A stretch of DNA of 25,029 nt, taken from positions 1 through 25,029 of the IMG/VR virus record IMGVR_UViG_2802429227_000004; one strand, written 5' to 3'. Below, in pieces: positions 4,727 through 25,029 of the stretch; the stretch's first letter is position 1; each line of letters starts with the position of its first letter. The notes under the pieces were generated by a model. That model was not told the origin of the DNA, made no database searches, and worked only from the letters and a program-made list of their open reading frames with translations. The position numbers were made by a program, and so were the translations under genes. Source of the DNA: a virus. Lineage: Duplodnaviria > Heunggongvirae > Uroviricota > Caudoviricetes.

Positions 4727-4727
4727 T

Positions 4728-5121: not shown

Positions 5122-5127
5122 AATTAT

Positions 5128-5345: not shown

Positions 5346-5406
5346 CCCGTTATACAACTTAAAAGTTGTATTTCTTACTTTAAACAAGGTAACAAGGTTT
5401 ATATAA

Positions 5407-5978: not shown

Positions 5979-5996
5979 TAAAAGGAATAATAATAA

Positions 5997-7025: not shown

Positions 7026-7043
7026 TATTTTAACGTGTAATAG

Positions 7044-7080
7044 AGGCGTGGCGTGTATTCACGCTTCGCCTTTTTTTATT
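7044..7080 (+). terminator. Rho-independent terminator candidate after the 342 aa gene
   Basis: ggcgtggcgtg-tattc-acgcttcgcc imperfect hairpin followed by ttttttt. Confidence 0.5.
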
Positions 7081-7111
7081 TATTTTTTAAATTTTGAGAG
7101 GTGATTAAAAT

Positions 7112-7315
7112 ATGGAAGTGATTTTGAAATCAAAAAATGGTTTACACGTACATTTAGATGCTAATGATTCTAGAGGCTTGTTAAATCTGAAATATCTATG
7201 TTCTCTTTTAGATGTTCCATATGAAGGCGTAAAAGCCCGTATGTTCAGACTAAACGAGAGTATTGATCAGGCTCTACACCATTTCTTAAGTAAAGAAGGT
7301 GGTAAAAATGATTAA
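7112..7315 (+). CDS. Hypothetical small protein (67 aa)
   Basis: ORF-track ORF with GAGAGG RBS region. Confidence 0.45.
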   Translation: MEVILKSKNGLHVHLDANDSRGLLNLKYLCSLLDVPYEGVKARMFRLNESIDQALHHFLSKEGGKND

Positions 7316-7329
7316 TAAGGGGATTTTAA

Positions 7330-9162: not shown

Positions 9163-9195
9163 TTCCCGCCATAACATTACAAGGAAATTATTATT

Positions 9196-9909: not shown

Positions 9910-9950
9910 CCGTAAACGCCTCTAAAACGCTCTGTAACGATGTAATTATA

Positions 9951-9984
9951 AAAGAGGCTACCAATCTATGTTGAAGCCTCTTTA
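9951..9984. terminator. Inverted repeat between convergent genes (possible bidirectional terminator)
   Basis: aaagaggct ... agcctcttt, a perfect 9 bp stem with a loop of about 16 nt. Confidence 0.35.
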
Positions 9985-9990
9985 TTGCGT

Positions 9991-11325
9991 CTATGGCGTT
10001 GTTTTACGCCTTAAATTTGATTTTTTATTGATTGATAAGCCTTTCTCTATTTCAGGGTAGCGTAGAAGCTCAATATATTTTTTAAGCTCTACTGGAGAAG
10101 CTGCATTCTTGCTATATGTGCGGAATGTCTCTGTATTACCGCGTGTATGGCCCAGGAGAAGGGCGATCCTGTCTTCTGGAATTTGATTTCGATCAAGAAG
10201 CTGTGCTACTCCGTGTCTCAGAGAATGAAACACCTTCCTTTCTGTTCCCTTTTCCCCTAAAGCCTTTCGTTTAGCCCTGGTAAATCTCTGCGTGTGCCAC
10301 GTGGAACGCTTGCCGTCTGCACGTTCTGTGATGCTGGCGTGATAGAACAAAAAGCCATTATGAGGCTTTTCACGCAGCGACAACACCAACGGAGTGATAA
10401 GGCTATGTACAGGCACAACACGTGCCGCAGCTTTCGTTTTTCCCTGTGTGATTTCAAAACACAGCACACCTTCGATCTCTTTCACATCGTCTATTGTGAG
10501 ACTTGCTATCTCATTGATCCGCATACCTGTATATAAACCGATAAGACACAAAGCCATCATTTCTTTGTTTTCTGCTGAATTACCGGAAAATACTTGCAAC
10601 ACCTGCAATAGCTCTTTGTTAGAAAATGCCTCGTAGCTCTCTCTACTTTGTGCCACATCAAGCCTATGCCCTCGCCAGGGGGAGAGCGCCCTTTCTGGTG
10701 CATCGTGGTAACGTGATGAAGCTAACTCCCATAGCTGGGCCATTGGGCTGATATAATTTGCAATTGATTGTTGTGAAAGGGTTTTTTGCATGTGTTCAAT
10801 CCAGCCTGTAACAGTGGTGCGGCTCACATCTTGCAATGCAATATCAGGCTTTTTACGGTAGGAGAGAAACATCTCTACCGCTTTTCTTGCCTTAGCTAAA
10901 GTGGCTGGCTTCTTCTTCGTGCTGTTAATTGTCAGGTAGATTTCAAGAATTTTAAGCAATGACGGACACGAAGACGCTGTATCTTGCATTCTGGTAGCTG
11001 TTTTGGCGTATTTAGCCTTACTGCGTAACAGCTCCAGCGTGTTCTCTATTGTGCTGTTTACAGGAGCGACACTCTCGCGTAAGCAATGGTATTCATCTGC
11101 AATCTGATCACGCTTTCTACGTGCAACACGAAGGTTACTTGTATGCAGACTCCTGACAAACGTCCTTTTTCCTTCAAAAAAGGGCTGCATATACACAGGC
11201 AGCGTGATCCTTAGATAGTAGTTACCGTAAGAATCACAGATTATGTATTGATTGGGCTTGTATCTCATAAACTCCCCGGCTAAAGTGTCGGAGCGTTTGT
11301 AATGTGAAAATTGATTGTAACGCAT
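9991..11325 (-). CDS. int: Tyrosine site-specific recombinase (integrase), 444 aa as given; alternative start at the second Met (about 11268)
   Basis: C-terminal catalytic signature: GMRINE (Arg), HSLRHGVAQ (His-x-x-Arg), LLGH (His), TFRTYSK (Tyr nucleophile). Confidence 0.85.
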   Translation of the reverse strand: MRYNQFSHYKRSDTLAGEFMRYKPNQYIICDSYGNYYLRITLPVYMQPFFEGKRTFVRSLHTSNLRVARRKRDQIADEYHCLRESVAPVNSTIENTLELLRSKAKYAKTATRMQDTASSCPSLLKILEIYLTINSTKKKPATLAKARKAVEMFLSYRKKPDIALQDVSRTTVTGWIEHMQKTLSQQSIANYISPMAQLWELASSRYHDAPERALSPWRGHRLDVAQSRESYEAFSNKELLQVLQVFSGNSAENKEMMALCLIGLYTGMRINEIASLTIDDVKEIEGVLCFEITQGKTKAAARVVPVHSLITPLVLSLREKPHNGFLFYHASITERADGKRSTWHTQRFTRAKRKALGEKGTERKVFHSLRHGVAQLLDRNQIPEDRIALLLGHTRGNTETFRTYSKNAASPVELKKYIELLRYPEIEKGLSINKKSNLRRKTTP

Positions 11326-11447
11326 AGAAAATGATGATTTTTTCTATAAGATTCAATCAATTAGTAATGGTCGTAGGTGATGGCATTAACACGAGATTAA
11401 TCGAGTGTTTTACTCCTATTATCGGCACCATTCTAACGTCTCCCCAA

Positions 11448-11597
11448 GTCTACTCAAGTATTTAAAAAACTCTTATAATCCGCATGTTAGCGCCCCTTTT
11501 AGTCTTTTGATGTCTACTTAAGTACCCCAAAATCTACAGTCAATTGGGGGTACTTTTGGGGGTATTTGCTGTTCGGTTTAGTGGAGGTACCCCCAAG
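11448..11597. repeat. Direct and inverted repeats in the 271 bp spacer between the two integrase genes (candidate att core or integrase binding sites)
   Basis: gtctactcaagta (11448..11460) and gtctacttaagta (11512..11524); inverted pair taccccaaaa (11523..11532) / ttttgggggta (11553..11563); extra ggtacccccaag at 11586..11597. Confidence 0.5.
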
Positions 11598-12811
11598 TGA
11601 AACTCAATGCCCGTCAAATAGACACTGCCAAGCCAAAAGAGAAGGCTTACAAGCTGGCTGATGGTGGTGGTCTGTATCTCTTGGTAAAACCTAGTGGAGG
11701 AAAATATTGGCGCTTCAAATATCGTGTAGCTGGTAAAGAGAAGCTGTTAGCACTAGGTGTGTATCCTGAAGTTACCTTGGCTGATGCTCGTGCAAAACGT
11801 GAAGAAGCTAAAAGGGGGATCGCTGGGGGTATCGATCCGATGGAAGCGAAACGAGAGGAAAAGATTGCCCGGGAAACGCAGTTAAACAACACCTTCAAAG
11901 ATATTGCCCTTGAGTGGCACAGCAGCAAATTAAAAAAATGGTCTGCTGGTTATGCTTCAGACATCCTCGAAGCCTTCAACAAAGATGTGTTCCCTTACAT
12001 TGGCAAAAAACCAATCGCCGAAATCAAACCACTTGAACTGCTGAATGTGCTGCGGCGCATCGAGGGGCGCGGTGCTACCGAAAAAGCCAAAAAAGTGAGG
12101 CAGCGATGCGGGGAAGTTTTCCGCTATGCAATTGTCACTGGACGTGCTGAGTATAACCCTGCACCGGATCTCACCAGCGCGATGCAAGGTCATGAATCTA
12201 ATCATTATCCTTTCCTCACAGCCAAAGAATTACCTGATTTTTTCAAGGCATTGTCCAGTTACTCAGGAAGTGCATTGGTTGTTATGGCGGCTCGTCTACT
12301 GATTATCACCGGTTTGCGGACTGGCGAACTGCGCGGTGCATTATGGGATGAAATCGATCTCAACAAGGCTATCTGGGAGATACCTGCTTCACGGATGAAA
12401 ATGCGTCGCCCTCATGTGGTGCCTTTGTCTAAGCAGGCTCTTTCGCTTATTGGGCAGATTAAAGAATTAACTGGCAATTATCCGCTTATGTTTCCCGGCC
12501 GTAATGATCCAAGGAAAACAATGAGCGAGGCTAGCATAAACCAAGTATTTAAACGCATCGGCTATAACGGAAAGGTTACTGGTCATGGATTCCGGCACAC
12601 CATAAGCACCATTTTGCATGAGCAGGGCTATAACACCGCGTGGATAGAGACACAGCTCGCACACGTCGATAAAAACTCAATTCGTGGCACATACAACCAT
12701 GCGCAATATCTGGATGGTCGCCGGGAGATGCTCCAGTGGTATGCCGACTATATGGATTCGCTCGAGCATGGCGGAAATGTGGTGCATGGTGAGTTCGGAA
12801 AATGCGGGTGA
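11597..12811 (+). CDS. int: P4-type tyrosine integrase (404 aa), GTG start
   Basis: N-terminus KPKEKAYKLADGGGLYLLVKPSGGKYWRFKYRVAGKEKLLALGVYPEVTLADARAKREEAK is the hallmark arm-binding domain of P4-family integrases; catalytic HGFRHT ... QLAHVD ... RGTYNHAQY. Confidence 0.9.
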   Translation: MKLNARQIDTAKPKEKAYKLADGGGLYLLVKPSGGKYWRFKYRVAGKEKLLALGVYPEVTLADARAKREEAKRGIAGGIDPMEAKREEKIARETQLNNTFKDIALEWHSSKLKKWSAGYASDILEAFNKDVFPYIGKKPIAEIKPLELLNVLRRIEGRGATEKAKKVRQRCGEVFRYAIVTGRAEYNPAPDLTSAMQGHESNHYPFLTAKELPDFFKALSSYSGSALVVMAARLLIITGLRTGELRGALWDEIDLNKAIWEIPASRMKMRRPHVVPLSKQALSLIGQIKELTGNYPLMFPGRNDPRKTMSEASINQVFKRIGYNGKVTGHGFRHTISTILHEQGYNTAWIETQLAHVDKNSIRGTYNHAQYLDGRREMLQWYADYMDSLEHGGNVVHGEFGKCG

Positions 12812-12909
12812 CTGGTTGAGTATACAGTAGTAGACTTTGAGCACCTAAAAAGGCTGATGCAAACAGAGCTGGCTCGGCCTTAACATTAGACCGCTTGAAG
12901 GGGGAGAAT

Positions 12910-13626
12910 ATGCCAATTGTGGAAAACATTCCTGACTTATCCCACTGGCGAACAATACAGGAGTTTTCTATCACCCAGGCCGCTTTATTGTTGGCCGGAA
13001 TTGATCCTTATGATTACCCTACTCTTGAACATGTCAGAGATAATAAACATGAACGTTGGAAAATGGCATGGGGGTTGGCTAATGGAATGGTAACAGCCAT
13101 CCGTCGTGGTGTCTTAACTCCTGTTGAATGTACCTCTGAAATAGTTGAATACGATAATTGGGGAAATGTTTGTGATATTGAGTACAAACGTCTGACATCA
13201 GCGCAACTGACCGATCGTGCATATGAGATAAGCAAGGATAAAACTTTAATTAGTCGCCATTCTTTATATGAGTGGATAAAAAATGAGAGCGTTGATTTTG
13301 CGAGATGCCCTCGCCCTATACCTGTTAAGGAAGTTAATCCGCCAGCAATCATTGAATCATCTCATCAGGTAATTAATCCTGACGAGTATTTGTGTACTTA
13401 TGGGCATAAGAGTGATGGGTTGGAGTATGTGCAGGATGCTATAAGAGAACTATGGTCGACGTATGACCCAGATGACCCACAGACGGCTCCGACAGAGCAT
13501 GAGGTACTTGAATATTTGAAAAAACGGGGGGCGGGTTCTAATGTTGCTAGGGCTGTGAATCTGATTTTAAGGCCTGAACATCTGAAGCGTATTGGTAGAA
13601 GACCAAAAAAACAAAAAGTTAAATAG
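12910..13626 (+). CDS. Hypothetical protein (238 aa) between int and alpA
   Basis: ORF-track ORF 12895..13626 begins at a TTG; ATG at 12910 preceded by AAGGGGGAG is preferred. No recognised motifs. Confidence 0.6.
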   Translation: MPIVENIPDLSHWRTIQEFSITQAALLLAGIDPYDYPTLEHVRDNKHERWKMAWGLANGMVTAIRRGVLTPVECTSEIVEYDNWGNVCDIEYKRLTSAQLTDRAYEISKDKTLISRHSLYEWIKNESVDFARCPRPIPVKEVNPPAIIESSHQVINPDEYLCTYGHKSDGLEYVQDAIRELWSTYDPDDPQTAPTEHEVLEYLKKRGAGSNVARAVNLILRPEHLKRIGRRPKKQKVK

Positions 13627-13881
13627 TGGTCGCTATTCCAGAAAAATGGTGGTTTCCTTTCAAAAAAAAGTAACCACCAATGCAGATTAAATCGTAAGAA
13701 CAGTAATTTTTCTTCGTGTTTCACGTCAGCATGATACTTAAAATAGTAAACGCCATTATTAAAAAAAGGTGGAGCTATTTCACTGAAATGGTATTCGCCA
13801 TTCATAATGGTAAGCATCTATAAATATCACTTTTCTTAATGCAAGCTATGTACACCTTTATAGACGTTACAAGGTGAATAT

Positions 13882-14079
13882 ATGGCAAACTCTCTTATTC
13901 GTTTAACGGAAGTTCAGCGTAGAACTGGATATAGCAAGGCATGGATTTATCGCCTTATGGGGCAAGGTAAATTTCCTGCATCAGTTAAAATTGGCTCGCG
14001 AGCTATTGCTTTCGTTGAGAGTGAAATTGACGAGTGGATTAATCAGCGTATTGCGGAATCACGCGGAACAGCTACCTGA
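13882..14079 (+). CDS. alpA: AlpA-family phage transcriptional regulator/excisionase-like protein (65 aa)
   Basis: LIRLTEVQRRTGYSKAWIYRLMGQGKFPASVKIGSRAIAFVESEIDEWI matches the AlpA HTH family; position just after a P4-type int; AAGGTGA RBS. Confidence 0.85.
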   Translation: MANSLIRLTEVQRRTGYSKAWIYRLMGQGKFPASVKIGSRAIAFVESEIDEWINQRIAESRGTAT

Positions 14080-14157
14080 TTAAATGGCTACGGGGCCAGA
14101 AGCCCCAACTATCCACTAGCAAATAAAAAGTAACTTAATTCGATAGCAGGAGTTTTT

Positions 14158-15006
14158 ATGAAACAGCGAAAAACGCCCGTACAGGGGCAGGGCTTCGTTC
14201 GGCCTGAAAACCAGAATCTGCAAAATTTCGGCGAAATTATCCCGGTTATTTCCGGCGTTATTGGCGGACGTGAAACCAATATTGTTAGCGCCAGAGCGTT
14301 GCATAAGGCGCTGGGTGTGAAGCGTGATTTCACAACCTGGATTAAAGGACGCATTGATGAGTACGGATTTAAAAAGGGCGTGGATTTTGAAGTTGTAGAT
14401 AATTTGTACTTTGATTCCCCGAAACGGGGGAACCAAAGTGTAAATATTGAACAGTTTGATTTTGATTGGACAACAAAGCGCGGCGGTGATCGTCGCAGTG
14501 AAGACTATTTGATCTCCACGAACATGGCGAAAGAACTGGCGATGGTCGAGCGCACCGAACAGGGCCGCGCCGATCGTCAGTACTTCATCAAATGCGAGGA
14601 GGAGCTACACAAGGTAGCGCCAGTGCGTTCCGCAGCGTTACGCCGGGAACTGAAAGCCCGTATCTCCGTTGCCAGCTACTTTAAGCCGATGTGTGCCGCG
14701 CTGGAGGCGTACCGGGCTGAACTGGGTAAAAACACACTCCAGCACCACTACACCACGGAAGCCAATATGCTGGCGCGTATCGTGCTGGGTGGCATGACTG
14801 CAAAACAGTGGACGCAGGCGAACGGCATCACAGGCGAACCACGCGACCACATGAGCACGTTGCAGCTTGAGCACCTTTCTTACCTTGAGCAGAGCAATAT
14901 CACGCTGATTGAGTTAGGCCTGGACTACCACCAGCGGAAAGCTGAATTAATTCGTCTTTCGCAGCGTTGGTTAGCCCGTCGCATGGAGGAAAACAGCCAT
15001 GTGTAA
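14158..15006 (+). CDS. Phage antirepressor-like protein (AntA-like N-terminal domain, KilA-C-like C-terminal region), 282 aa
   Basis: Segment VSARALHKALGVKRDFTTWIKGRIDEYGFKKGVDFEV resembles AntA/Rha-type antirepressor N-terminal domains; AGGAG RBS. Confidence 0.65.
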   Translation: MKQRKTPVQGQGFVRPENQNLQNFGEIIPVISGVIGGRETNIVSARALHKALGVKRDFTTWIKGRIDEYGFKKGVDFEVVDNLYFDSPKRGNQSVNIEQFDFDWTTKRGGDRRSEDYLISTNMAKELAMVERTEQGRADRQYFIKCEEELHKVAPVRSAALRRELKARISVASYFKPMCAALEAYRAELGKNTLQHHYTTEANMLARIVLGGMTAKQWTQANGITGEPRDHMSTLQLEHLSYLEQSNITLIELGLDYHQRKAELIRLSQRWLARRMEENSHV

Positions 15007-15420
15007 CGCTCTGACCGTTACAAAAAGAGAAAGCGCCCCGTTGCCGGAGCGCCTTTGTGAACGAATAGCCTACTGCGCCATATTGCTTACTGTCTACGAG
15101 GCAGATTATAGCGTTGTGGTCGCACAGAGTGAAGGCGCTGATCACCGTTACTACAGCACGCCAGAAATGCAGAATATTTTGCTGCAAAATGTCGTTGGTC
15201 ACGCTGTCCGGAAAGCAAAAAATTTTGCTGGTGGCGCGACTGATGCGATTTTGTCAGGTCGCAAGGTGATGATCAATCTGATGTCTAATTTCGTTCTGGA
15301 TAAAACAAAGGCGACCGCAGAGGGCCACCAGTGGGAAAGCTACACACTTGAACACATCGCCAACAATGCCAGATTTGCGGCTGGTGGGCAATGTGATCAG
15401 TGTGCTGGCTTGCTGGTGGG
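14999..15420 (+). other. ORF of uncertain extent; only about the first 130-140 codons of the 512 aa ORF-track call look protein-like, and the 3' end is undefined
   Basis: Start overlaps upstream stop as ATGTGTAA. After about codon 140 the translation becomes Cys/Ser/Arg-rich low complexity and runs across a well-supported minus-strand gene (15679..15984) and into gene 16172..16537 in the same frame. Confidence 0.25.
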
Positions 15421-15678
15421 CTATTCCTGCTCTTTAACATTGCCATGCCGCGATGTTTTCCAGGTATGCGACCCCATTTTTGTGCGCCTGTACTCTTTAA
15501 GGAATTTCTCAAGGATAAACGCACAGGGCGCGAATCTGTCTGACTCATATTCGTACGCTATCTTTCTGCGCTGTCTTTTCCGTGCCGGTGATGGTGTATT
15601 GGTCGATTCTTTGTTGGTCATTCTGTGTACCTGTAAAGCAATGCGCCGGAGTTCCTCACACCACGGCGATGATAGTTA

Positions 15679-15984
15679 TTATTCTGATTCTTTGGCCTTG
15701 CGGCGCTGGAGTTCTTCACGTGCGACGGTGACGAGCTGCCCGATCTCCTCGACAGCTTTGACTCCGATTTTTTCCACCTGCGCCAGTGCATTGAGCGAAG
15801 AAACCAGGGGATTTTCTCCGCTTCCTTCTGCCTGGCGGCGGGCGATCTCACCACGCATGGCGGTTACTATGAATCCGGCGTTGCTTTCGCCGTCCAGTTT
15901 TACGGATTCCATGCCTTCAAAAGCATCATGTGGGATACGAATTGAAATCTGTTTTGATTTGTCGTTGATAGTGTTTTTTGCCAT
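15679..15984 (-). CDS. Ribbon-helix-helix-like DNA-binding protein (101 aa), candidate repressor divergent from the replication operon
   Basis: AGGAGA RBS 6 nt upstream of the ATG at 15982..15984 (ORF-track call 15679..16023 uses an upstream Met without RBS); KQISIRIPHDAFEGMESV strand-helix pattern. Confidence 0.65.
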   Translation of the reverse strand: MAKNTINDKSKQISIRIPHDAFEGMESVKLDGESNAGFIVTAMRGEIARRQAEGSGENPLVSSLNALAQVEKIGVKAVEEIGQLVTVAREELQRRKAKESE

Positions 15985-16171
15985 GTGCATTCTCCTAAAC
16001 AAAAGATGTGATTCAGTATACACAAAAAAGAATCACAAAAAATACTTGACCTGTGATTCAGTTAAATTTAATTTAAATCACACCTCAGTAAGAGGATATA
16101 AACGACAACGCCCCGAACTGTTTGCGGCAGTAGCGGGGCGTCTAACCAAACCGTTAAATGAGGTAACGATT
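15985..16171. promoter_or_regulatory. Divergent promoter/operator region with TGTGATTCAG repeats
   Basis: gatgtgattcagtatacac (~16005), gaatcacaaaa (~16030), cctgtgattcagttaaat (~16049), aaatcacacc (~16075); TTGACC -35-like element at ~16045. Confidence 0.5.
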
Positions 16172-16537
16172 ATGGCTGGGGCACAGCATACCCAAACTCA
16201 CCCTAAATTTATATACACCTTCCTGGCGGTGCACCGTGATTGCATGGCTGACGGTAAAAACACTGTTCATGTAGCCGCCGATACGCTGGTTGATGCCTGC
16301 GAGATGCTCAATGACATGGGCTATATCTCGGCAACATGGAAAGGGCGCGAAGAAAACACGTTGTTTATTCAGAAATGCGAAAACAATTTTATCTGGCGTT
16401 TTATCGCCCTGAGTACGGCACAACCGCGCGTGATTCACATCGAGGCCACCAGCGAACAGGAAGCACGCCAGCAATCTCCTGATGGCTGCGTGATGGTATT
16501 CGCTGCCCGTATTCGCCAGGAGGTGGAGCATGTGTAA
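16172..16537 (+). CDS. Hypothetical protein (121 aa), first gene of the small-gene/primase operon
   Basis: GAGG RBS then ATG at 16172; in the ORF track this is the in-frame tail of the 14999..16537 ORF. Confidence 0.6.
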   Translation: MAGAQHTQTHPKFIYTFLAVHRDCMADGKNTVHVAADTLVDACEMLNDMGYISATWKGREENTLFIQKCENNFIWRFIALSTAQPRVIHIEATSEQEARQQSPDGCVMVFAARIRQEVEHV

Positions 16538-16754
16538 TGCAACATGGCCTGATGCAGCGGTAGACGCTATCAAAACGCTGATGGATTCACTTATTGAGAT
16601 TTCTGCTATCGCTGGTGTGGCGCATAAACACGCAGCCAGAGAATCAGAATGCATCTCCCATTATTTAGCATTTGTGCAGCTGAAAGCCGATCAGGCACTG
16701 GATAAGGCCGGAAAAATTATCATGGCTGATGTACAGGAGGTGCACCATGCATAA
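16530..16754 (+). CDS. Hypothetical small protein (74 aa)
   Basis: Start overlaps upstream stop as ATGTGTAA (16530..16537). Confidence 0.55.
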   Translation: MCNATWPDAAVDAIKTLMDSLIEISAIAGVAHKHAARESECISHYLAFVQLKADQALDKAGKIIMADVQEVHHA

Positions 16755-17112
16755 CCTGTCAATTTCTGACCTTAACAGCATTCAGTTTGACGAGATATTT
16801 TCCGGGCAGCTACTGGTTAACGTGGAGAATGGACGCGTGGTAAGTAATTATCACCTGCCGGATGGTGCAATTGCCGGAAGCGTTGAAGCATTGCTGGAAC
16901 TGGCGGAACGTGCGCGACTGATTAAGCCGTCAACGTGCCATCACGATGATGATCTGCATTTTACCGGGTGTATGGTGAGTCACTACGAAAACGGCGTTGA
17001 AGTATCCTGCGAACGTCTGCGTGATGATTGCTGTTTCGGCACACTGCCGGAATTTATCGAATTGCTGACCAGTTGCGGTTATCAGGTCATTCAGGGGGGT
17101 AAACATGCGTGA
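16747..17112 (+). CDS. Hypothetical protein (about 121 aa)
   Basis: GGAGG RBS; ATG at 16747 overlaps upstream stop as ATGCATAA; ORF-track call starts 18 nt earlier. Confidence 0.55.
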   Translation: MHNLSISDLNSIQFDEIFSGQLLVNVENGRVVSNYHLPDGAIAGSVEALLELAERARLIKPSTCHHDDDLHFTGCMVSHYENGVEVSCERLRDDCCFGTLPEFIELLTSCGYQVIQGGKHA

Positions 17113-17338
17113 TGATCGTTTTAATTCCCTGAAACAGGAGTTTGATGGCGCACCGGAAGATACATCGGGCGCATTGTTGAGCATTGCTGACATGATGAAA
17201 GCTGCATATTTTCTTATCAATACCAGGGGCTACAAGTCAGAGGGTGAAATGATTCTTAGTATTGCGTCGGACTATGCTGAATATGTGGCAGAGACGCGTT
17301 ACAGAAGAAAATCTCTGGAGGATGTAAGCCATGCATAA
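17105..17338 (+). CDS. Hypothetical small protein (77 aa)
   Basis: Start overlaps upstream stop as ATGCGTGA (17105..17112). Confidence 0.55.
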   Translation: MRDDRFNSLKQEFDGAPEDTSGALLSIADMMKAAYFLINTRGYKSEGEMILSIASDYAEYVAETRYRRKSLEDVSHA

Positions 17339-17531
17339 TCATGAAGCGCATGTACCCGTAGTGCTTAATGTGCCAGATGATTTCACCGGACGCGTGCTGG
17401 TTTACCTTGATAAAGAAAAAGTGAAATCACAATGCCGACTGAAAAGTAATGAGATTGTGGGTTCTCCTGAATTTTTTTCTGAACTCTGTATTCGTGCAGA
17501 AATAAAACCGGAACTGCTGACAGGAAAATAA
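17331..17531 (+). CDS. Hypothetical small protein (66 aa)
   Basis: Start overlaps upstream stop as ATGCATAA (17331..17338). Confidence 0.55.
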   Translation: MHNHEAHVPVVLNVPDDFTGRVLVYLDKEKVKSQCRLKSNEIVGSPEFFSELCIRAEIKPELLTGK

Positions 17532-17535
17532 AACC

Positions 17536-17826
17536 ATGAAAAGGAAAAATTCTGGCTTTACTGCCAGCGGTCTCTCTCGGCCTGAAATCAGACACGGAGA
17601 TATTTACCGCGACACCAGACGTGGGGGACGAGTGGTTATTCGTCACGTTACGCCAGGCAATATCACCTACCGCCGTGAGGCTTACGAATATGACTGCGTA
17701 ATGCCGCGCCGTCAGTTTGAGCGTGATTTTATTCTGGTGGAAAACAAACAACAGGCAGTGGCGAGACGTGCAGCCACGAATATTAAAAAAATCCGGGCAA
17801 TGTTGGTTGCGGGAGGTAAGAAGTGA
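17536..17826 (+). CDS. Hypothetical basic protein (96 aa) immediately upstream of the primase
   Basis: ATG 5 nt after the upstream stop; 4 nt GTGA overlap with the primase gene start. Confidence 0.55.
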   Translation: MKRKNSGFTASGLSRPEIRHGDIYRDTRRGGRVVIRHVTPGNITYRREAYEYDCVMPRRQFERDFILVENKQQAVARRAATNIKKIRAMLVAGGKK

Positions 17827-19628
17827 AAAACGCACCGAATTTAAAATATCAGCCGAAGGATAAATTCACCGAGGTAATCATTTTTGCCGGGACGGATGCT
17901 TACGCCCATGCTCAACACTGGATTGAAAGCGAAGGACGAAAACACGGCGATAACGTGCCTCCTGTTTACCTGGGGCCAAAGCAACTGGCAGACCTGGCGA
18001 ATATCCGCATTGTCGACGATGAACGCCGCTTTGCGCGTGTCTATCTCGCGGGGGAGATAGAGCCAATCCAGATCAATGCTATTGCTGAAAAGCTGGCGCT
18101 GGCTGGTGTACAGGACGCGAAATTATACAAAGGTATCACCGACCGGGAGCCGGAAAACTGGCGCGACTACCTGCAACGGATCCGCGAACAGGCAGAGAGT
18201 GGGGAAGTTTCAGCGATGAAATTAGCCACAAAAAATATTGACCTATCTAGGCCAGCACTAAATCAGATGGGAGCCAGCCAGAGAGGGGAAGTGTTACTTG
18301 AATATTATGGAAGAGCACTGGCTATAAATGATGATTCTGATGTAGTTCACCATTACAACGGAATTGTCTGGGTGCCTGTATCTGATAAGGAACTCCAGCG
18401 GTCTATGGCGAAGATTTTTATTGATGCTGGAATCAGTTATTCGCAAAACGCCATTAAATTTGCCGTAGACACAATGAAATTGAGCCTGCCTGTTATGGGC
18501 GGGGCAGACAGGAATCTTATTGGATTCAGTAACGGGGTATTTGATACCCGGACGGGAAATTTTCGGGAGCATAACAAAAATGACTGGTTGTTAAATGCCA
18601 GTGAATTACCGTTCAGCCCACCAGCAGAGGGGGAAACGCTGGCAACACATGCGCCGAATTTCTGGAAGTGGCTGCGTCGTTCGGTGGCAGATAATGATCG
18701 TAAAGCTGATCGCGTACTGGCGGCATTATTCATGGTGCTGGCGAACCGGTACGACTGGCAGTTATTCCTTGAGGTAACAGGCCCAGGCGGAAGCGGTAAA
18801 AGTGTGATGGCTGAGATTTGTACCATGCTGGCGGGTAAGGCCAACACAGTATCGGCAAGCATGAAGGCTCTGGAAGACGCAAGGGAACGCGCGTTAGTAG
18901 TTGGCTTTTCGCTGATTATCATGCCGGATATGACTCGCTACGCTGGCGATGGTGCAGGAATTAAGGCAATTACTGGCGGCGACAAGGTGGCAATTGATCC
19001 GAAACATAAAGCCCCCTACTCCACACGTATTCCGGCAGTAGTGCTTGCGGTAAACAATAACGCCATGTCATTCAGTGACCGAAGCGGGGGGATCTCGCGT
19101 CGTAGGGTGATATTTAATTTCTCTGAGGTCGTACCGGAGAACGAACGCGATCCCATGCTGGCGGAAAAGATAGAAGGCGAACTGGCGGTAGTGATTCGCC
19201 ATTTGCTAACACGATTTACCGACCAGGACGAAGCTAAAAGACTACTTTATGAGCAGCAAAAATCAGAAGAAGCGCTGTTGATAAAGCGCGAAGGTGATTC
19301 ACTGGTGGACTTTTGCGGCTATCTGATGTCGTTGGTTAAATGTGAAGGAATGATGGTGGGCAATGCGGAAATAGTGCCATTTAGCCCGAGGCGATACCTG
19401 TATCATGCTTATTTAGCCTATATGTCAGCGCATGGCCTGGGAAAACCAGTATCACTGACACGCTTTGGTACTGATATGCCAGGAGCTATGGCGGAATACG
19501 GAAAGGAGTATAAGCGGGCTAAATGCACTAAAGGCCCGGATAAAGGGCGAGTGATAACAAATGTTCTGTTAGATGATGATGCTGATGGCTGGTTGCCAGC
19601 AGCTACAGGGATTAACGACAGAACATAA
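17823..19628 (+). CDS. Phage/plasmid primase-helicase, P4 alpha/D5 family (601 aa)
   Basis: Walker A P-loop VTGPGGSGKSV in the C-terminal half; overall size and architecture of satellite pri-rep proteins; followed by an iteron origin. Confidence 0.8.
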   Translation: MKNAPNLKYQPKDKFTEVIIFAGTDAYAHAQHWIESEGRKHGDNVPPVYLGPKQLADLANIRIVDDERRFARVYLAGEIEPIQINAIAEKLALAGVQDAKLYKGITDREPENWRDYLQRIREQAESGEVSAMKLATKNIDLSRPALNQMGASQRGEVLLEYYGRALAINDDSDVVHHYNGIVWVPVSDKELQRSMAKIFIDAGISYSQNAIKFAVDTMKLSLPVMGGADRNLIGFSNGVFDTRTGNFREHNKNDWLLNASELPFSPPAEGETLATHAPNFWKWLRRSVADNDRKADRVLAALFMVLANRYDWQLFLEVTGPGGSGKSVMAEICTMLAGKANTVSASMKALEDARERALVVGFSLIIMPDMTRYAGDGAGIKAITGGDKVAIDPKHKAPYSTRIPAVVLAVNNNAMSFSDRSGGISRRRVIFNFSEVVPENERDPMLAEKIEGELAVVIRHLLTRFTDQDEAKRLLYEQQKSEEALLIKREGDSLVDFCGYLMSLVKCEGMMVGNAEIVPFSPRRYLYHAYLAYMSAHGLGKPVSLTRFGTDMPGAMAEYGKEYKRAKCTKGPDKGRVITNVLLDDDADGWLPAATGINDRT

Positions 19629-19655
19629 TACGAAATTTATAAGCTGAAACGTAAA

Positions 19656-19991
19656 GGTAGACGGTTGGTAGACAGATTCACTTAACCCTCTACCAACCAT
19701 CTACCAATTAATATTTTGAATTATAAAGATATTTTCAATGTAGTAGAGAGGTAGACAGTTATTTCTATATTCCTAAACCACGGGGGGTATATAAAAAACA
19801 GATAGTTAAGGGGGCATTTTTTAAATTTCTCTTTTAACTGTCTACACTGTCTACCATTTAGTAAAAATCATTAATTATCAATGTATTAATGCGGTAGACC
19901 GTTGGTAGACAGTTTGCAGATTGTTTTTTTGTTATGTGTTAATAACATTAAATAAATCAATCAATTATATCGGTAGACAGTTGGTAGACAG
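19656..19991. repeat. Iteron-type origin: about 6 direct and inverted copies of GGTAGAC(A/C/G)GTTGGTAGACAG
   Basis: 19656..19675 direct; 19689..19704 inverted; 19750..19760 half site; 19839..19856 inverted; 19893..19912 direct; 19972..19991 direct; separated by AT-rich DNA. Confidence 0.75.
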
Positions 19992-20011
19992 TTGTAACGA
20001 TGGGGCAAAGC

Positions 20012-20542
20012 ATGACTAAGCTGACCATTAACAGAAAACCAAAAGGTATTTACGGCACGCCGCAGAAAACGACGCAGGCGGCACAGGAGCAGGATAAAAC
20101 CACATCGGCGCATAAAGTGATGCCCGGTAACCAGAAAGCGCAGCAGAAGCCTACAGGGGCGACACCGTGGCGGCATATGACCAAACGCCAGCGCAAAAAC
20201 CGCAGGCGCGTTAACCGCCTCACTGAGTTGTGGCCTGACTTATTCAGCCGGGAAGCACTGAAGCCGCTTAAGGTGGGGATATTCGACGACCTGATGCAGG
20301 ATCTCGCCGCCAGGGGGCTGGCATTCGGGCCAGGGGCATTGCGTGCGACGCTGGCATCTTATGCGCAGTGTCCGCGCTATTACCGCGCCTTAATGGCTGG
20401 TGGGGTACGCTACGACCTGAAAGGCCAGCCGTGCGGCGAGGTGACACCACAGGAACAACAGGACGCAGAAACGCGGCTGGTGGCGCTGAATGAGAAGCGC
20501 AAACGCCAGTGCCGGGCAGCAAAGGAGACAATAGGCGCATGA
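20012..20542 (+). CDS. ProQ/FinO-domain RNA-binding protein-like (about 176 aa)
   Basis: LWPDLFS...PLKVGIFDDLMQDLAARG...ALRATLASYAQCPRYYRALMAGGVRYDLKGQPCGEVT resembles the ProQ/FinO domain of E. coli ProQ; start at 20012 (GGGG upstream) preferred over 20000. Confidence 0.7.
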   Translation: MTKLTINRKPKGIYGTPQKTTQAAQEQDKTTSAHKVMPGNQKAQQKPTGATPWRHMTKRQRKNRRRVNRLTELWPDLFSREALKPLKVGIFDDLMQDLAARGLAFGPGALRATLASYAQCPRYYRALMAGGVRYDLKGQPCGEVTPQEQQDAETRLVALNEKRKRQCRAAKETIGA

Positions 20543-20826
20543 TTCACGACAGCAAAGCGGAAGCACTGGAAGCGCGTGGTCTGTACCGGAGAGCGGCGGC
20601 GCGGTGGGCTGAGGTCATCATGCTGGCGAATGATGACAAGGCACGGGAACAGGCGGCAAAACGTCGCGCGGAATGTATCCACAAGGCAGCACGCCCACCA
20701 GCAAGGCAGGATAATTTCGGGGAGATGCGCGAAACCATCAGCCGGGCACATGCCGGGATGGGATTACATCAGCCCAATGGTGAGGCATTCAGGAAATACC
20801 AAAAAAAGAACAATTGTAGTCAGTAA
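20539..20826 (+). CDS. PerC-family transcriptional regulator-like protein (95 aa)
   Basis: MIHDSKAEALEARGLYRRAAARWAEV is PerC-like; 4 nt ATGA overlap with the upstream gene; ORF-track call starts 30 nt earlier without RBS. Confidence 0.6.
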   Translation: MIHDSKAEALEARGLYRRAAARWAEVIMLANDDKAREQAAKRRAECIHKAARPPARQDNFGEMRETISRAHAGMGLHQPNGEAFRKYQKKNNCSQ

Positions 20827-20960
20827 CAGAGGATGGGATTCTCTTGGTTTTTTGTTGATGCTTTCTGAGGAAATCTACTACGTTGCTGAGCAGATGAATA
20901 TTCAATTGCATCTGGGTTCCTGATAAGATTAATCTGAATATTTTCATTTGGAATAGGGAT

Positions 20961-22103
20961 ATGAATAAAACTTTAATTGCAACATTAGTCGGTATAGTAA
21001 TGTTAACCGGATGTGGGCCAGAAGAGTTAACTCCAGAACAGAAACAGGAAGTAGCTGCTCTTAAAGCTGAACTGTCGCAAACGGAAGGTGAAATATCAGC
21101 AGCTAAGGAAGTTGACCAGCAGTTTTCTGGTGGGTTGATAAAAAATCTGACAACAGCAAGACTGGAAATATTAGGAACTAATAAAGCGCTTTTGGAACAG
21201 CGTATTAATGCTATTGAATCAGGTGCCAAAATTGATGTTGTTGTATCTGGAGTAAAACCTGATCCTGAGCTTGCGGCTTCAATTAAAACTGAAATTGACA
21301 GCTTAGATGCAAAAATCAACGAAGCCAAAGCTGATGCTCGTCAGTATAGTGGTGGTCTGATAAAGGTACTAAAATTATCTACTGTTGCCACTGAAGAGCA
21401 GACCATGGCAATGTTGCAGCAAAAGTACCTCACAGCCAAGTATGGCCTCGCTGAAGTTAAGCTGGCATCAGTACAAGCTAATGACGCAAAAAACAGTACT
21501 GAAACGGAAGTAACAGCCAAAAATTCCCAAGAGCAACTTCCTTTACTCCCGCCAGCGGATGGTCCGTTTGGCTTAGAAGCCGGTCTTACACAGAAAAACA
21601 TCGAAGATATGATCGGTGCTAAGCTCAAGCCACTACCAGACAGTGTGAATCTGTATACTTCTGATAAATTACCGAAGCAAAACGCAGATTTTGAAATGTA
21701 TGGTTTGCTGATCTCCCCGAAAGCTGGTTTATGTCAAATACGGGCTTTAGGAAAAAATATTGATACTGATAGCTATGGATTGGCTCTTAAATCCAAGTTT
21801 GAAGAATTGAGTAATTCTTTAAGTTCTCTGTATGGAAAGGCTGATACTACAGACTTTTTGCTGGCTGGTTCAATTTGGAAAGATCCTCAGGACTGGATGA
21901 GGGGGCTAAACAAAAAAGAACGCTTCTTATCTGCCACATGGAAGGGAACAAAAGAAATACCATTAAAAAACAATATTGATACTATATCTATTGAGGCCAG
22001 AGCGAACAATTCCACTCAGGGATATGTCTATCTGCAGTACTCATTTACAAATGACGAAATTTGTCAGGCAGAAATTGAAGGGGCGAAAAAAAGTTCCCTT
22101 TAA
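20961..22103 (+). CDS. Predicted lipoprotein (380 aa) with internal repeats; low-GC cargo gene
   Basis: Signal peptide with lipobox MNKTLIATLVGIVMLTGC; repeated QQFSGGLIKNL / RQYSGGLIKVL units; AT-rich compared with flanking genes. Confidence 0.75.
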   Translation: MNKTLIATLVGIVMLTGCGPEELTPEQKQEVAALKAELSQTEGEISAAKEVDQQFSGGLIKNLTTARLEILGTNKALLEQRINAIESGAKIDVVVSGVKPDPELAASIKTEIDSLDAKINEAKADARQYSGGLIKVLKLSTVATEEQTMAMLQQKYLTAKYGLAEVKLASVQANDAKNSTETEVTAKNSQEQLPLLPPADGPFGLEAGLTQKNIEDMIGAKLKPLPDSVNLYTSDKLPKQNADFEMYGLLISPKAGLCQIRALGKNIDTDSYGLALKSKFEELSNSLSSLYGKADTTDFLLAGSIWKDPQDWMRGLNKKERFLSATWKGTKEIPLKNNIDTISIEARANNSTQGYVYLQYSFTNDEICQAEIEGAKKSSL

Positions 22104-22113
22104 ACAATCCGTG

Positions 22114-22145
22114 CAAAGCCCCTTAGTAAGGGGCTTTTATATATT
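22114..22145 (+). terminator. Rho-independent terminator after the lipoprotein gene
   Basis: aagcccc-ttagtaa-ggggctt hairpin followed by ttat. Confidence 0.65.
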
Positions 22146-22167
22146 AATGTTCAACGTGGGGGATTAG

Positions 22168-22491
22168 ATGAAAGATAATCTAGCAAAACTAATTGAAAAT
22201 ACTTTAAAAGATATTCTATTAGCTAATGCTGCTCTAACATTCATTTTTGCAATACCAATGGCTATTATCAGTAGGCATGGGATGGGCATCACAATCTGGT
22301 TTATAACTGTGCTCATTGCACCTGCTCTGTGTGCAGTAGGTGCATGGCTTGTATCTCGAACATCCGGCCATGCTGAGGAGTTCTTTCATCGTCGGTGGGC
22401 TAAGCGAATTTATGTTTTTTATACTCTTGCGGCTGCCGAGTTTTTGCTTGTGTACTCAATCGCGCAAATAATGAAAAATCTGATGAAATAA
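22168..22491 (+). CDS. Small integral membrane protein (107 aa, 2-3 predicted TM helices)
   Basis: Hydrophobic stretches AALTFIFAIPMAII, ITIWFITVLIAPALCAVGAWLV, VFYTLAAAEFLLVY; GGGG RBS. Confidence 0.6.
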   Translation: MKDNLAKLIENTLKDILLANAALTFIFAIPMAIISRHGMGITIWFITVLIAPALCAVGAWLVSRTSGHAEEFFHRRWAKRIYVFYTLAAAEFLLVYSIAQIMKNLMK

Positions 22492-22685
22492 TTAACAAGT
22501 TATTATCATGGAGCTTGTGGCTGTTAACCTGCAGTGAGGCGACAATCGTGTATTTATAAAAACTTCCCCTTTTCACTCCCCGCTGCTTCTTCTGCTATTG
22601 CCTTTATGTTTGCATCTGCCATACCTTTGCAGAAAAATCAGAGCATTCAGTGCCGAAGGTTGGTTTATTGATGCTTTTCGTTTCA

Positions 22686-22745
22686 TTTATTGCAATTGTC
22701 TCTGGTATCATTTCAATTTGTGCAATAATTGCAATTATTGTCATT
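22686..22745. promoter_or_regulatory. Operator-like array of TTGCAAT-containing repeats upstream of gene 22760
   Basis: ttattgcaattg (22688..22699) and aatttgtgcaataattgcaattattg (22712..22740); the reverse complement of ATTGCAAT is itself, so the core is palindromic. Confidence 0.5.
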
Positions 22746-22759
22746 CAGAAGGGATCATC

Positions 22760-22927
22760 ATGAAAAATCACGGAGTAAAGCCAGTTTTACTTTCCCGGAG
22801 GCAGATCGAAGCCCTGCAACGCATCCAGGACGAAGAGCGTCAGAAATCTGTGCTTGGTGTGGCACCGTCGATTCATGTTATCGCTCGGCAACTGATGGAT
22901 AAGGCACTTAAAGAGGTGAGACTGTGA
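22760..22927 (+). CDS. Hypothetical small protein (55 aa)
   Basis: ATG at 22760 with AGAAGGGA RBS; the ORF-track ORF 22598..22927 extends upstream through the operator repeats and is not credible there. Confidence 0.5.
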   Translation: MKNHGVKPVLLSRRQIEALQRIQDEERQKSVLGVAPSIHVIARQLMDKALKEVRL

Positions 22928-23196
22928 AATTAAATATCAGAGTGGATAAACGCCAGCTATGGCAGAAAAAAGAGAACAGCGAGGCATTCAGGGCGTTGCT
23001 GGTGGAAAATCTTCAGCATCGGTTCAGTGGAGAGTTGCCTGATGCTCTAGGGAAGAAACTGGAATCCCTGACGGTGGAAATTGGCGATTATGGCTTTGTT
23101 GATGTTGAAAGCACGACTGCCAACACAGAAATCGTAAAACAGGTCGTCAATGATGTAATGAAAACCACGCTTAGCCAGCCATCCTGGCGCAACTGA
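22924..23196 (+). CDS. Hypothetical protein (90 aa), GTG start
   Basis: 4 nt GTGA overlap with the upstream gene, suggesting translational coupling. Confidence 0.5.
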   Translation: MKLNIRVDKRQLWQKKENSEAFRALLVENLQHRFSGELPDALGKKLESLTVEIGDYGFVDVESTTANTEIVKQVVNDVMKTTLSQPSWRN

Positions 23197-23295
23197 ATCA
23201 GTAAGGGGCGGTTATTGCCCCTTTCCTCCATACCCACAACGCATTCCCTTTCCGCATGAAATTATTTTTTATCGTATATGCATGAGGTGAGCTAC

Positions 23296-23823
23296 ATGTT
23301 GATGAGTAAAGCCGAATACGCCAAATACAAAGGCGTAAGCCGCCAGACAGTTTACGACTGGCTCGAGAAAGGCGAAGTGGTCATGTCCGGTAAAAAAATT
23401 GATGTGGAAGCGACAGAGCAGCGGAACAGCCCACCAGCACAGGGGAAAGACACCATTTCTGAAATGTGGCCAGAAAGAACGCTGGAAATGACATGGGGCG
23501 AGTTCTGGAAAGCAGTTAAGGCCAGAGACGGTAAAATTCCTGCGCCAGTAACGGACGAGGGCATACAGCAGCGTGTGCTGTATGCAGCCGGGGAATTAGG
23601 CTGGGAAGTGCACTTTCTTGATGATGGTGCTATCTGCCTTGAGGATGATGAAGGGCAGCATTACTTTGAAAAATACAATTTGCGAGGTAATGCCAGGCTG
23701 GCAATTCGTATGCTGCGTTGCGAACTCTGCTATGTTGCAGGTGATTATCCCGATGAACCGGAATCATGGAGTGAAGCCGGGTTAAACGCCCTGGCTGAGT
23801 GGGAAAAATCAGACCATCAATGA
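23296..23823 (+). CDS. Winged-HTH DNA-binding protein resembling the N-terminal domain of lambda terminase small subunit Nu1 (about 175 aa); candidate packaging-redirection (Rpp/TerS-like) protein
   Basis: MSKAEYAKYKGVSRQTVYDWLEKGEVV aligns, from memory, with lambda Nu1 KKQLADIFGASIRTIQNWQEQGMPV (pattern A-x-x-x-G-x-S-x-x-T-x-x-x-W-x-E-x-G); GAGGTGA RBS 6 nt before the ATG at 23296; similar size to Nu1. Confidence 0.55.
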   Translation: MLMSKAEYAKYKGVSRQTVYDWLEKGEVVMSGKKIDVEATEQRNSPPAQGKDTISEMWPERTLEMTWGEFWKAVKARDGKIPAPVTDEGIQQRVLYAAGELGWEVHFLDDGAICLEDDEGQHYFEKYNLRGNARLAIRMLRCELCYVAGDYPDEPESWSEAGLNALAEWEKSDHQ

Positions 23824-24115
23824 CATCAAAAAGTGTCAAGTTGAGCAGCTTGCCAGCTTGCCAGCTTGCCAGGTTGACACTTTACACTCTGAACGCGAAA
23901 AAGTGTCAACCTCGCTGTAAGCCCCGCAATTACTGGGTTTGTGCCAGATTTACCACGTCAAAAAGCCGAAAAAACCGCGAAAAATGTCAAGTTGCCATGC
24001 TTAGAAATGCTAAGGTTTTTCGCGAAAAAGTGTCAAGTGTGTCAACCTGCGATATTAAGATTTATTAAGGTCTTAAGCCGGAAAGTGTCAACCAGCCCCC
24101 TAAGATTTCCTAAGG
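23824..24115. repeat. Array of at least 7 copies of (A)AAGTGTCAA(C/G) in both orientations plus AGCTTGCC x3 and TAAGATTTnnTAAGG repeats; candidate packaging (cosB-like) or binding site array
   Basis: GTGTCAA cores at ~23833, 23873 (inverted), 23903, 23984, 24030, 24038, 24084; cgcgaaaaagtgtcaa occurs 3 times; cttgccagcttgccagcttgccagg at 23849..23873. Confidence 0.75.
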
Positions 24116-24212
24116 TGTGATTGGACGTGCTGTAACCTTCTTGTCGCAATGTGGATGAATGACTATAGTGCTGGTAGCTTTGACAGCAGAATCAGATTAC
24201 TGAAGGAAATGT

Positions 24213-24797
24213 GTGATGAGTTTTTTTAGTCTTTATGGGAAAGAACTATTTTCTTTTTTTATAACGATTTTAACATGGATACTGAATAACAGATTTAAAA
24301 GCAAGGCAAAGTTATCCTATGGTTATCAGCATGGATTTACTTTTCTTCTCAATGAACCCTTACGGAATGCCAATGGTGAGGTAATATCTAATTCACAGTT
24401 GGTGTATACACGATCTATTATTCTTGTTAATGAAGGGCGAGAAAGTGCTACTAATATCTCATTGGTTTTTAACTATAAGCCAATGCATATTAATTTTTGG
24501 CCTGTCCACCATTTTGAAGAAAATATTGAACAGGATGGTCGCTATATTATCAAGTTTGAAAGCCTTGCACCTGGTGAGTCTATTCAATGTGAAATATTAT
24601 CAATAAATAGAGAAGTTCCAAGTATTCTATCGATAAGATCTAAAGAGTGTGTGGCTGAGCCAGTGAATATCGTGATGCAAAAATCGATTAGTAATATTGC
24701 CCTACGTTGCTATCAATTATTAATACTTCTTGGAACTGGCACATTAACATATTTAATTATCGTTATTCTGCAATGGTTAGTCACTAAAACGGGATAA
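24213..24797 (+). CDS. Low-GC hypothetical membrane protein (194 aa) with N-terminal and C-terminal hydrophobic helices
   Basis: Strongly AT-rich coding sequence; FFITILTWIL near the N-terminus and LLILLGTGTLTYLIIVILQWLV at the C-terminus. Confidence 0.6.
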   Translation: MMSFFSLYGKELFSFFITILTWILNNRFKSKAKLSYGYQHGFTFLLNEPLRNANGEVISNSQLVYTRSIILVNEGRESATNISLVFNYKPMHINFWPVHHFEENIEQDGRYIIKFESLAPGESIQCEILSINREVPSILSIRSKECVAEPVNIVMQKSISNIALRCYQLLILLGTGTLTYLIIVILQWLVTKTG

Positions 24798-24846
24798 TCC
24801 ATTGTATTGAACTTATTAATTGGATATGAGTGCTGATAGGAAACCT

Positions 24847-25029
24847 ATGACCATCACCGAAGCCGATATGCTGGAGATGATCCGCAGCATTGCCGGAATC
24901 AAACAACCAGCAAGCAAAATTAACAGGTGTTCAGCGCCTGTTTCCGTTGTGCTGCAACAGGAACGCCACCAGCGGCGGGAAAACGAAAAGGCGTACCAAT
25001 GGACGAAGCCAAACAAGTTACGGCGTTAA
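24847..25029 (+). CDS. Hypothetical protein, 5' partial at window end
   Basis: AGGAAA RBS then ATG at 24847 (MTITEADMLEMIRSIAGIK...); the ORF runs off the window. Confidence 0.4.
   Translation: MTITEADMLEMIRSIAGIKQPASKINRCSAPVSVVLQQERHQRRENEKAYQWTKPNKLRR

Follow-up and report, generated by a model that had tools for sequence, protein, structure and literature searches.

We describe an AT-rich gene that encodes a 193-residue predicted membrane protein and lies at positions 24216 to 24797, plus strand, of a 25,029-nucleotide stretch of viral DNA (positions 1 to 25,029 of the IMG/VR record IMGVR_UViG_2802429227_000004, Caudoviricetes; the whole stretch is referred to here as the window). The gene is real, under selection, mobile, and partnerless; it sits in a cargo hotspot of a satellite of the phage-inducible chromosomal island (PICI) type and belongs to a large, undescribed protein family. 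An anti-phage role is plausible by location and architecture, and we rate it at about an even chance. More specifically, and somewhat less likely than not, the protein may be the founding Escherichia coli member of a large, unrecognized family of one-gene anti-phage systems, in which a cytoplasmic immunoglobulin (Ig)-like sandwich is clamped by two conserved membrane helices. Such a family would sense infection directly, act on the inner membrane, and move among PICI satellites, P2-like prophages, and chromosomal islets. Satellite hotspots are already known to carry cargo genes; an Ig-like sandwich between two membrane helices is an architecture undescribed for defense.

A selected gene on a single-gene cassette

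A preliminary description, made from the letters alone, had reported a strongly AT-rich open reading frame (ORF) of 194 codons at 24213 to 24797, differing sharply in composition from its neighbors and acquired horizontally. The ORF was confirmed on the plus strand, with the 194-residue version depending on an alternative GTG start at 24213. Homologs favor 193 residues: ATG 24216 is the start in all of them and in the RefSeq annotation of a near-identical island in E. coli APEC E123. The compositional contrast is likewise clear, with a GC content of 0.330 in the gene (0.267 at third codon positions) versus 0.498 and 0.505 in the two flanking genes and a mean of 0.458 for the island (11597 to 25029). 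The AT-richest 585-bp stretch of the island lies inside the gene, and equally AT-rich windows make up 0.5% (z = -2.4). The gene and the elements carried with it are as follows.

24216 to 24797, plus strand: coding sequence, 193 residues, stop codon included (homolog starts, RefSeq annotation, and substitution rates)
24203 to 24207, plus strand: Shine-Dalgarno-like AAGGA, 8 nt 5′ of ATG 24216 (direct sequence reading)
24119 to 24846, plus strand: single-gene cassette of 728 bp, comprising a promoter-like region, the gene, and a 49-bp tail (K99B/E123 alignment and coverage classes)
24141 to 24169, plus strand: sigma-70-like promoter candidate TTGTCG-17-TATAGT, 47 bp 5′ of the ATG (consensus match only 9/12)

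Citrobacter, Hafnia, Serratia, and Pectobacterium have relatives of full length. Over all full-length homologs, identities range from 93% to below 30%, and pairwise ratios of nonsynonymous to synonymous substitution (dN/dS) against the measurable relatives fall between 0.09 and 0.22. As such, the gene is under purifying selection and is no chance ORF. These ratios, well below 1, also bear on the alternative that the gene is a nonfunctional or decaying remnant, which would fit its very low frequency in E. coli, the existence of partial family members, and split alleles: in a few E. coli assemblies (P0012 and P0013), the gene is frameshifted into pieces of 119 and 122 residues. Pseudogenization therefore happens occasionally. 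Given the low dN/dS, full-length conservation over hundreds of clusters, and the presence of the exact protein on 433 public contigs, we regard a remnant as hardly credible.

The cassette (GC 0.342 versus 0.44 and 0.51 in its flanks) has an empty counterpart in E. coli K99B, where AAATC stands in place of 24119 to 24846 in an alignment that also includes APEC E123. It was found in 15 of 5426 complete E. coli genomes; the flanking sequence is present in 170 E. coli genomes, 15 with the cassette and 155 without it. A related island at a different chromosomal site (strain 357900) also carries the cassette, with nothing further beyond it. Because the cassette is cleanly present or absent between otherwise collinear islands, the gene is horizontally acquired cargo of a PICI-type satellite, as had been claimed from composition. 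The promoter candidate lies inside the cassette, and sigma-70-like matches occur in this region at chance-level numbers. Transposon- or integron-like cassette ends were considered and rejected, since there is no target duplication and the only inverted repeat, 10 nt long and imperfect, is at chance level. This repeat, AGATTTCCTA / TAGGAAACCT at 24103 to 24112 and 24837 to 24846, brackets the cassette and is probably meaningless, as equally good repeats arise by chance in the same 790 bp.

The surrounding island (11412 to 25029) is collinear, at 99.4%, with the APEC E123 island at tRNA-Thr, between proA and the pao/yagU side. Its annotated genes encode an integrase, an AlpA-type helix-turn-helix (HTH) regulator, an AntA antirepressor, an Icd-like protein, a DUF4222 protein, a D5-type/DUF5906 primase, ProQ, PerC, and hypothetical proteins. 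The integrase, AlpA-type regulator, primase, fixed integration site, and absence of structural and lysis genes identify the island as a PICI-type satellite. EcCIMP1, an experimentally mobilized PICI, occupies the same site with the same gene set (PMC11773190), a likeness established for site and gene content. An E. coli defense-island paper makes no mention of the proA-yagU integration site.

The gene occupies a variable 3′ region used for defense cargo

Similarity between islands stops at about 24093 to 24119, with different genes beyond, and the gene sits at the start of this variable 3′ region. Past the breakpoint, APEC E123 carries a 60-residue-protein gene and GapS1, K99B carries the 60-residue-protein gene and a DUF4747 pair, and O104:H4 and 55989 carry an AAA ATPase with a DUF4435 protein, a domain pair like that of PARIS. 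In the Citrobacter freundii island, the variable region holds a SEFIR/TIR protein. The hotspot stretches in the sister islands, which correspond to sequence downstream of the window end, are as follows.

Locus L001: 15857 to 18315
Locus L003: 7240 to 9196
Locus L002: 14429 to 15921
Locus L006: 11238 to 12674

The suggestion that the gene stands at a recurrent cargo position is thus borne out by GapS1, AAA plus DUF4435, the DUF4747 pair, and SEFIR/TIR in sister islands. More generally, a passage of He et al. 2024 (PMC11364771) that summarizes Fillol-Salom et al. 2022 places the immune systems of PICIs at the 5′ or 3′ end of the island. In P4 hotspots, six of eight randomly chosen unknown loci proved defensive when tested (PMC13586616), and P4 and P2 hotspots are analogous cargo sites (PMC9122126, PMC13586616). 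The present gene shares the variable 3′ region with the recognized defense genes of sister islands and occupies a mini-slot of its own there, between an iteron array and the conserved 60-residue-protein gene, 5′ of the larger cargo genes.

A large, undescribed family

An exhaustive profile search over 1.84 billion cluster representatives (clusters at 50% identity) retrieved 631 clusters at E ≤ 1e-3, 375 at E ≤ 1e-10, and 69 at E ≤ 1e-30, nearly all of about 190 residues and with the same end-to-end architecture. In addition, a degenerate DNA pattern encoding the conserved N-x-G...V-F-N-x-x-P-x-x-x-N-x-W motif yielded 97 metagenome loci, all of which hmmsearch confirmed as family members. The family is found widely in soil, marine, and freshwater metagenomes, and the flanking GC content of its loci ranges from 0.35 to 0.66, so its hosts are diverse. 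A repeat protein search with a profile (word-indexed) gave few extra relatives, and a locus search with the family alignment gave one further genome locus as well as near-identical E. coli satellites in viral contigs.

The protein had no match in Pfam, NCBIfam, or PHROG, and no family from these was common to more than one of 60 diverse relatives. PADLOC-DB v2.0.0 gave no match to the protein at E ≤ 1 (models newer than 2023 were outside this search), which places the gene apart from the modeled immune cargo of PICI 3′ ends; across the 60 diverse members, the single PADLOC match was a chance-level one to PglZ (E = 0.026). The PDB gave no sequence match at E ≤ 1, profile search included. Clear homology to a non-defense membrane protein family, which would have spoken for another role, was likewise not found in sequence or structure searches. 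No mention of the protein accessions was found in the literature, and the sequence and accessions are absent from the DefensePredictor supplements. The family is therefore large and without description in databases.

Predicted architecture and membrane topology

An AlphaFold2 model was built on a 12-sequence alignment (mean pLDDT, the predicted local distance difference test score, 81) and delimits three parts.

24219 to 24296, plus strand: N-terminal helix, residues 2 to 27 (model, hydrophobicity, and conservation)
24312 to 24638, plus strand: all-beta Ig-like sandwich, residues 33 to 141 (model; block pLDDT about 83 to 92)
24693 to 24791, plus strand: C-terminal helix, residues 160 to 192 (model, hydrophobicity, and conservation)

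The preliminary description had proposed two terminal transmembrane helices around a soluble middle domain. The C-terminal helix agrees well with this: its core, at about 166 to 190, is strongly hydrophobic, and the 19-residue Kyte-Doolittle mean reaches 2.16. By contrast, the N-terminal helix is marginal, with a Kyte-Doolittle value of about 1.3 and an approximate Hessa-scale energy of about +3.7 kcal/mol (family mean, +2.1). It is amphipathic: S2, S5, K9, S13, T17, T20, and N24 lie on one 120-degree face and form a Ser/Thr/Lys/Asn stripe along the helix, and the basic residues R26, K28, K30, and K32 follow at or after its end. As a membrane span, the N-terminal helix is likely, not certain. 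In all, the protein is predicted to be tethered to the inner membrane by its C-terminal helix and probably also by its amphipathic N-terminal helix. The expected middle domain is present in the model between the helices and is a generic Ig-like sandwich.

Most family-wide conserved residues fall in the sandwich (H39, T65, N72, G74, A78, N86, P89, W95, P96, R109, P119, E121, P135, and R141). Nine of these, H39, T65, A78, P96, R109, P119, E121, P135, and R141, were not forced by the search pattern, nor were the conserved helix positions, namely, the Y-x-K-E motif, which the N-terminal helix carries together with a W-x-L motif, and, in the C-terminal helix, the invariant G173 and the conserved Y179, Q186, and terminal K-T motif. 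With mean top-residue frequencies of 0.46 and 0.44, the helices are nearly as conserved as the sandwich (0.51) and are therefore probably more than anchors. Against solved structures, residues 33 to 141 aligned over 88 to 99 residues at a root mean square deviation of 2.4 to 2.8 Å and an identity of 7 to 13%. The solved Ig-like modules differ from the present protein in being secreted or surface exposed and in lacking flanking membrane helices, and they have no functional motifs in common with it.

Topology was assigned by Lys/Arg counts (the positive-inside rule) over 115 full-length members. The segments beside the middle domain hold on average 3.0 and 2.3 Lys/Arg residues versus 0.9 and 0.9 at the short termini, and the charge favors a cytoplasmic sandwich in 107 of the 115 members. 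By the positive-inside rule, this bias predicts a sandwich on the cytoplasmic side, unlike that of a periplasmic exclusion protein. A conserved disulfide was considered and rejected, as the domain holds 0 to 5 cysteines, with odd counts in 40% of cases; lacking a conserved cysteine pair, the family offers no disulfide argument for a periplasmic domain.

The predicted topology bears directly on superinfection exclusion, in which the protein of a resident satellite or prophage would block genome entry at the inner membrane, by occupying or altering a channel or host factor for DNA translocation, and the cell would survive. Membrane proteins of this kind in prophages include SieB (PF14163), Imm and Sp of T4, and lactococcal Sie2009. 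The present protein resembles them as a small, membrane-anchored, and apparently self-sufficient moron product of temperate elements, encoded without a partner gene at the attR-proximal "moron" end of P2-like phages and satellites, with a promoter-like site of its own from which it may be expressed in the lysogen. The short termini, predicted to be periplasmic, carry the conserved Y-x-K-E and L-K-T; Ig-like folds are common in envelope proteins; and one homolog adjoins a SieB-family gene. On the other side stand the charge distribution, which places the large domain in the cytoplasm, the lack of similarity to PF14163 or any PHROG, and the breadth and conservation of the family, which far exceed those of the usually narrow, fast-evolving exclusion proteins. 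We consider exclusion unlikely.

Genomic contexts of homologs

Homologs occupy comparable positions in other elements. Another PICI-like island, next to xseA, carries one at its core-gene-proximal end. In the P2-like Yersinia phage vB_YenM_324, a homolog (48% identity) lies at the attR-side end, far from the integrase and 11 kb from the holin/endolysin cluster, and in a Pantoea P2-like element, deposited as a plasmid, a homolog lies between the tail module and the integrase, also at the attR-side end. The 30.8-kb record NZ_CP109855.1 (locus L021, Pantoea dispersa pESL4.2) was deposited as a plasmid, and its genes are those of a P2-like phage (baseplate, tail, integrase, CI, CII, Fil, Dam, and replication endonuclease genes); the record probably represents a prophage in excised or episomal form. 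In Pectobacterium, the homolog adjoins a HigBA-like pair in a small islet 3′ of guaA; in Serratia, an orphan homolog stands between housekeeping genes; and on metagenome contigs homologs adjoin integrase, resolvase, or S24-repressor genes.

We surveyed 277 neighbors within three genes of the family gene at 86 distinct loci. No recurrent partner gene was found among them, and the largest neighbor cluster had three members, all of one E. coli winged HTH gene. No cyclase was found in the E. coli, Citrobacter, Serratia, and Pectobacterium contexts. The gene is an autonomous module without a partner. By Pfam and PADLOC, the nearest 150 neighbors include integrases, resolvases, a transposase, a type IIG restriction-modification enzyme, AbiH, SieB, TerB, DUF4747, SngA, SoFic, Mrr, several PDC candidates, and many ordinary genes. 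In 56 of 60 loci, the GC content of the family gene fell below that of its flanks, with a mean difference of 8.5 points. Horizontal acquisition has thus recurred throughout the family, and the claim of horizontal origin holds beyond the E. coli gene.

The mixed neighborhoods also bring in an accessory membrane protein outside phage defense, such as a factor for the envelope, stress tolerance, or host interaction, or a selfish maintenance function carried along by mobile elements. Such a role would suit a family with no link to any defense family, a wide environmental spread, strong purifying selection, neighbors that include transporters, radical SAM genes, and metabolic genes, and orphan Serratia copies amid housekeeping genes. 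It accords less well with the repeated siting of the gene in a satellite cargo/defense slot and at prophage ends, its patchy, low frequency among E. coli genomes, its persistent AT-richness, and the mobile-element and defense genes among its neighbors. We hold this explanation to be possible rather than probable, and a serious rival to an anti-phage role.

A possible anti-phage mechanism

Within the anti-phage reading, we favor a mechanism like abortive infection, in which a protein with a cytoplasmic sensor acts on the membrane. The topology as predicted and the conserved polar residues of the helices speak for this mechanism, which is itself possible rather than probable. The conserved Ig-like sandwich, held at the cytoplasmic face, would bind a phage-made component, and binding would alter the packing or oligomerization of the two conserved, polar-striped helices. 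The membrane would turn leaky and infection would stop, a protection that would serve the satellite's host. What we infer here is the topology in the membrane, the role against phages, and each step of the mechanism.

Several observations weigh against this proposal. No defense phenotype is known for the gene or its family, and there is no homology to any defense model or known family (Pfam, NCBIfam, PHROG, PADLOC, and PDB). Strong purifying selection across hosts of 35 to 66% GC is atypical for a phage-specific sensor, and homologs are rare in viral contigs. Defense-related genes make up only about 8 to 12 of the 150 nearest neighbors, a suggestive figure with no matched control. The sandwich has a generic fold, and most of the solved structures resembling it are adhesin or carbohydrate-binding modules from outside the cytoplasm, which would favor a periplasmic domain, in conflict with the charge rule; the topology itself comes from residue counts. 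Finally, the N-terminal helix may fail to span the membrane.

Among known systems, one comparison is with Cap15, which Duncan-Lowey et al. reportedly described in 2021 as a membrane-disrupting effector of the cyclic-oligonucleotide-based antiphage signaling system (CBASS), with a small beta-rich sensor domain and transmembrane helices. Both proteins are about 200 residues long and combine two membrane helices with a compact all-beta domain, the helices and the cytoplasmic placement of the domain being predictions in the present case; the helices of the present protein carry conserved polar residues. The order of the parts differs (two transmembrane helices followed by the beta domain in Cap15, one on either side of it here), as does the fold, a beta-barrel in Cap15 and an Ig-like sandwich here. 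Unlike CBASS and Pycsar, the present gene has no adjacent cyclase or other partner at the 86 loci, and neither sequence nor PADLOC models match the protein to CBASS or Cap15.

If the gene is protective, it would represent a compact (about 580 bp), partnerless membrane defense module that is unrelated to known systems and has hundreds of homologs in the environment, as well as a further case of a cargo pool common to PICI and P2-type elements. If it is not, a hotspot position combined with an AT-rich membrane-protein signature would be insufficient for a defense call. Whatever its role, the family marks an annotation gap, being a widespread, conserved membrane protein associated with mobile genetic elements that has no Pfam, NCBIfam, or PHROG model.

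Sequences adjoining the cassette

The cassette is flanked by the following features.

23296 to 23823, plus strand: core satellite protein of 175 residues (winged HTH at the N terminus, alpha/beta domain at the C terminus)
23824 to 24118, no strand assigned: noncoding iteron array, 295 bp (repeat search; array kept in K99B)
24847 to 25029, plus strand: gene for a 60-residue protein of unassigned function, kept with or without the cassette (island comparisons)

The array holds six copies of AAAGTGTCAA, one inverted and one with a mismatch, and one GTGTCAAC; six of the seven AAAGTGTCAA matches in the window lie within 260 bp. Also present are TAAG-N-TAAGGT repeats and CAGCTTGC, the latter as three units in tandem. 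The cassette is inserted at the right edge of the array, which islands lacking the cassette have likewise kept. The winged HTH of the 175-residue protein is of the Xis/TerS-N/Rpp/MerR type, with a fold that suits Xis, TerS-N, and Rpp equally, and the protein has no sequence-level PDB match to TerS or RppC; it is a candidate iteron binder. Rpp is known for packaging redirection (PMC6739421), and an Rpp-like role of this kind is plausible for the array, which may otherwise serve excision or replication. The gene had been placed beside a putative packaging site. The iteron array and the winged HTH gene do adjoin it, but no lambda-type cosN was found in the window and the HTH fold is ambiguous. 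The array stands as a candidate pac/cos-B-like or origin site.

With such neighbors, the gene could serve the life cycle of the satellite or phage, for example in the timing of helper lysis, in packaging, or in particle release from the membrane. It lies directly beside the array and the Xis/TerS-N/Rpp-like gene, and holins can be targets of two-helix membrane proteins. Since the gene is missing from 155 of 170 otherwise identical islands, it is dispensable for the satellite; it also occurs in contexts that are neither satellite nor phage, and genes for lysis or packaging are not regular neighbors of it. We judge a life-cycle role to be improbable. Identity as a holin or other lysis protein was rejected on the length of 193 residues (versus fewer than 150), the 110-residue beta domain that splits the helices, and the absence of adjacent lysis genes.

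On the other side of the cassette, the real start of the 60-residue-protein gene is ATG 24847, as the in-frame TTG and ATG at 24820 and 24826 belong to the cassette. The cassette supplies a new Shine-Dalgarno sequence for this gene, displacing the original ribosome-binding region.

Other features of the window

A second mobile element lies in tandem 5′ of the satellite (window positions 1 to 11400; GC 0.39). It encodes a homolog of major capsid protein E (5997 to 7025), a Dit-like tail protein (9196 to 9909), and a tyrosine integrase (9991 to 11325, minus strand). The element could be either a phage remnant or a capsid-forming satellite. At 95% identity, E. coli WWCOL-236 covers 86% of positions 1 to 24071, i.e., most of both elements.

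Within the satellite, a 512-codon open frame on the plus strand (14999 to 16537) has no Pfam match and ends at the stop codon of the annotated gene for a 73-residue Icd-like protein. This frame overlaps two opposite-strand genes of the E123 record (hypothetical and YlcI/YnfO) and would be unusually long if noncoding. At 20961 to 22491, a gene for a 380-residue protein with a lipoprotein-type N terminus (…MLTGC) and internal repeats is followed by one for a 107-residue multi-helix membrane protein. Both are AT-richer than the island mean (GC 0.40 and 0.39), yet they are kept in all sister islands inspected, in E. coli and Citrobacter.
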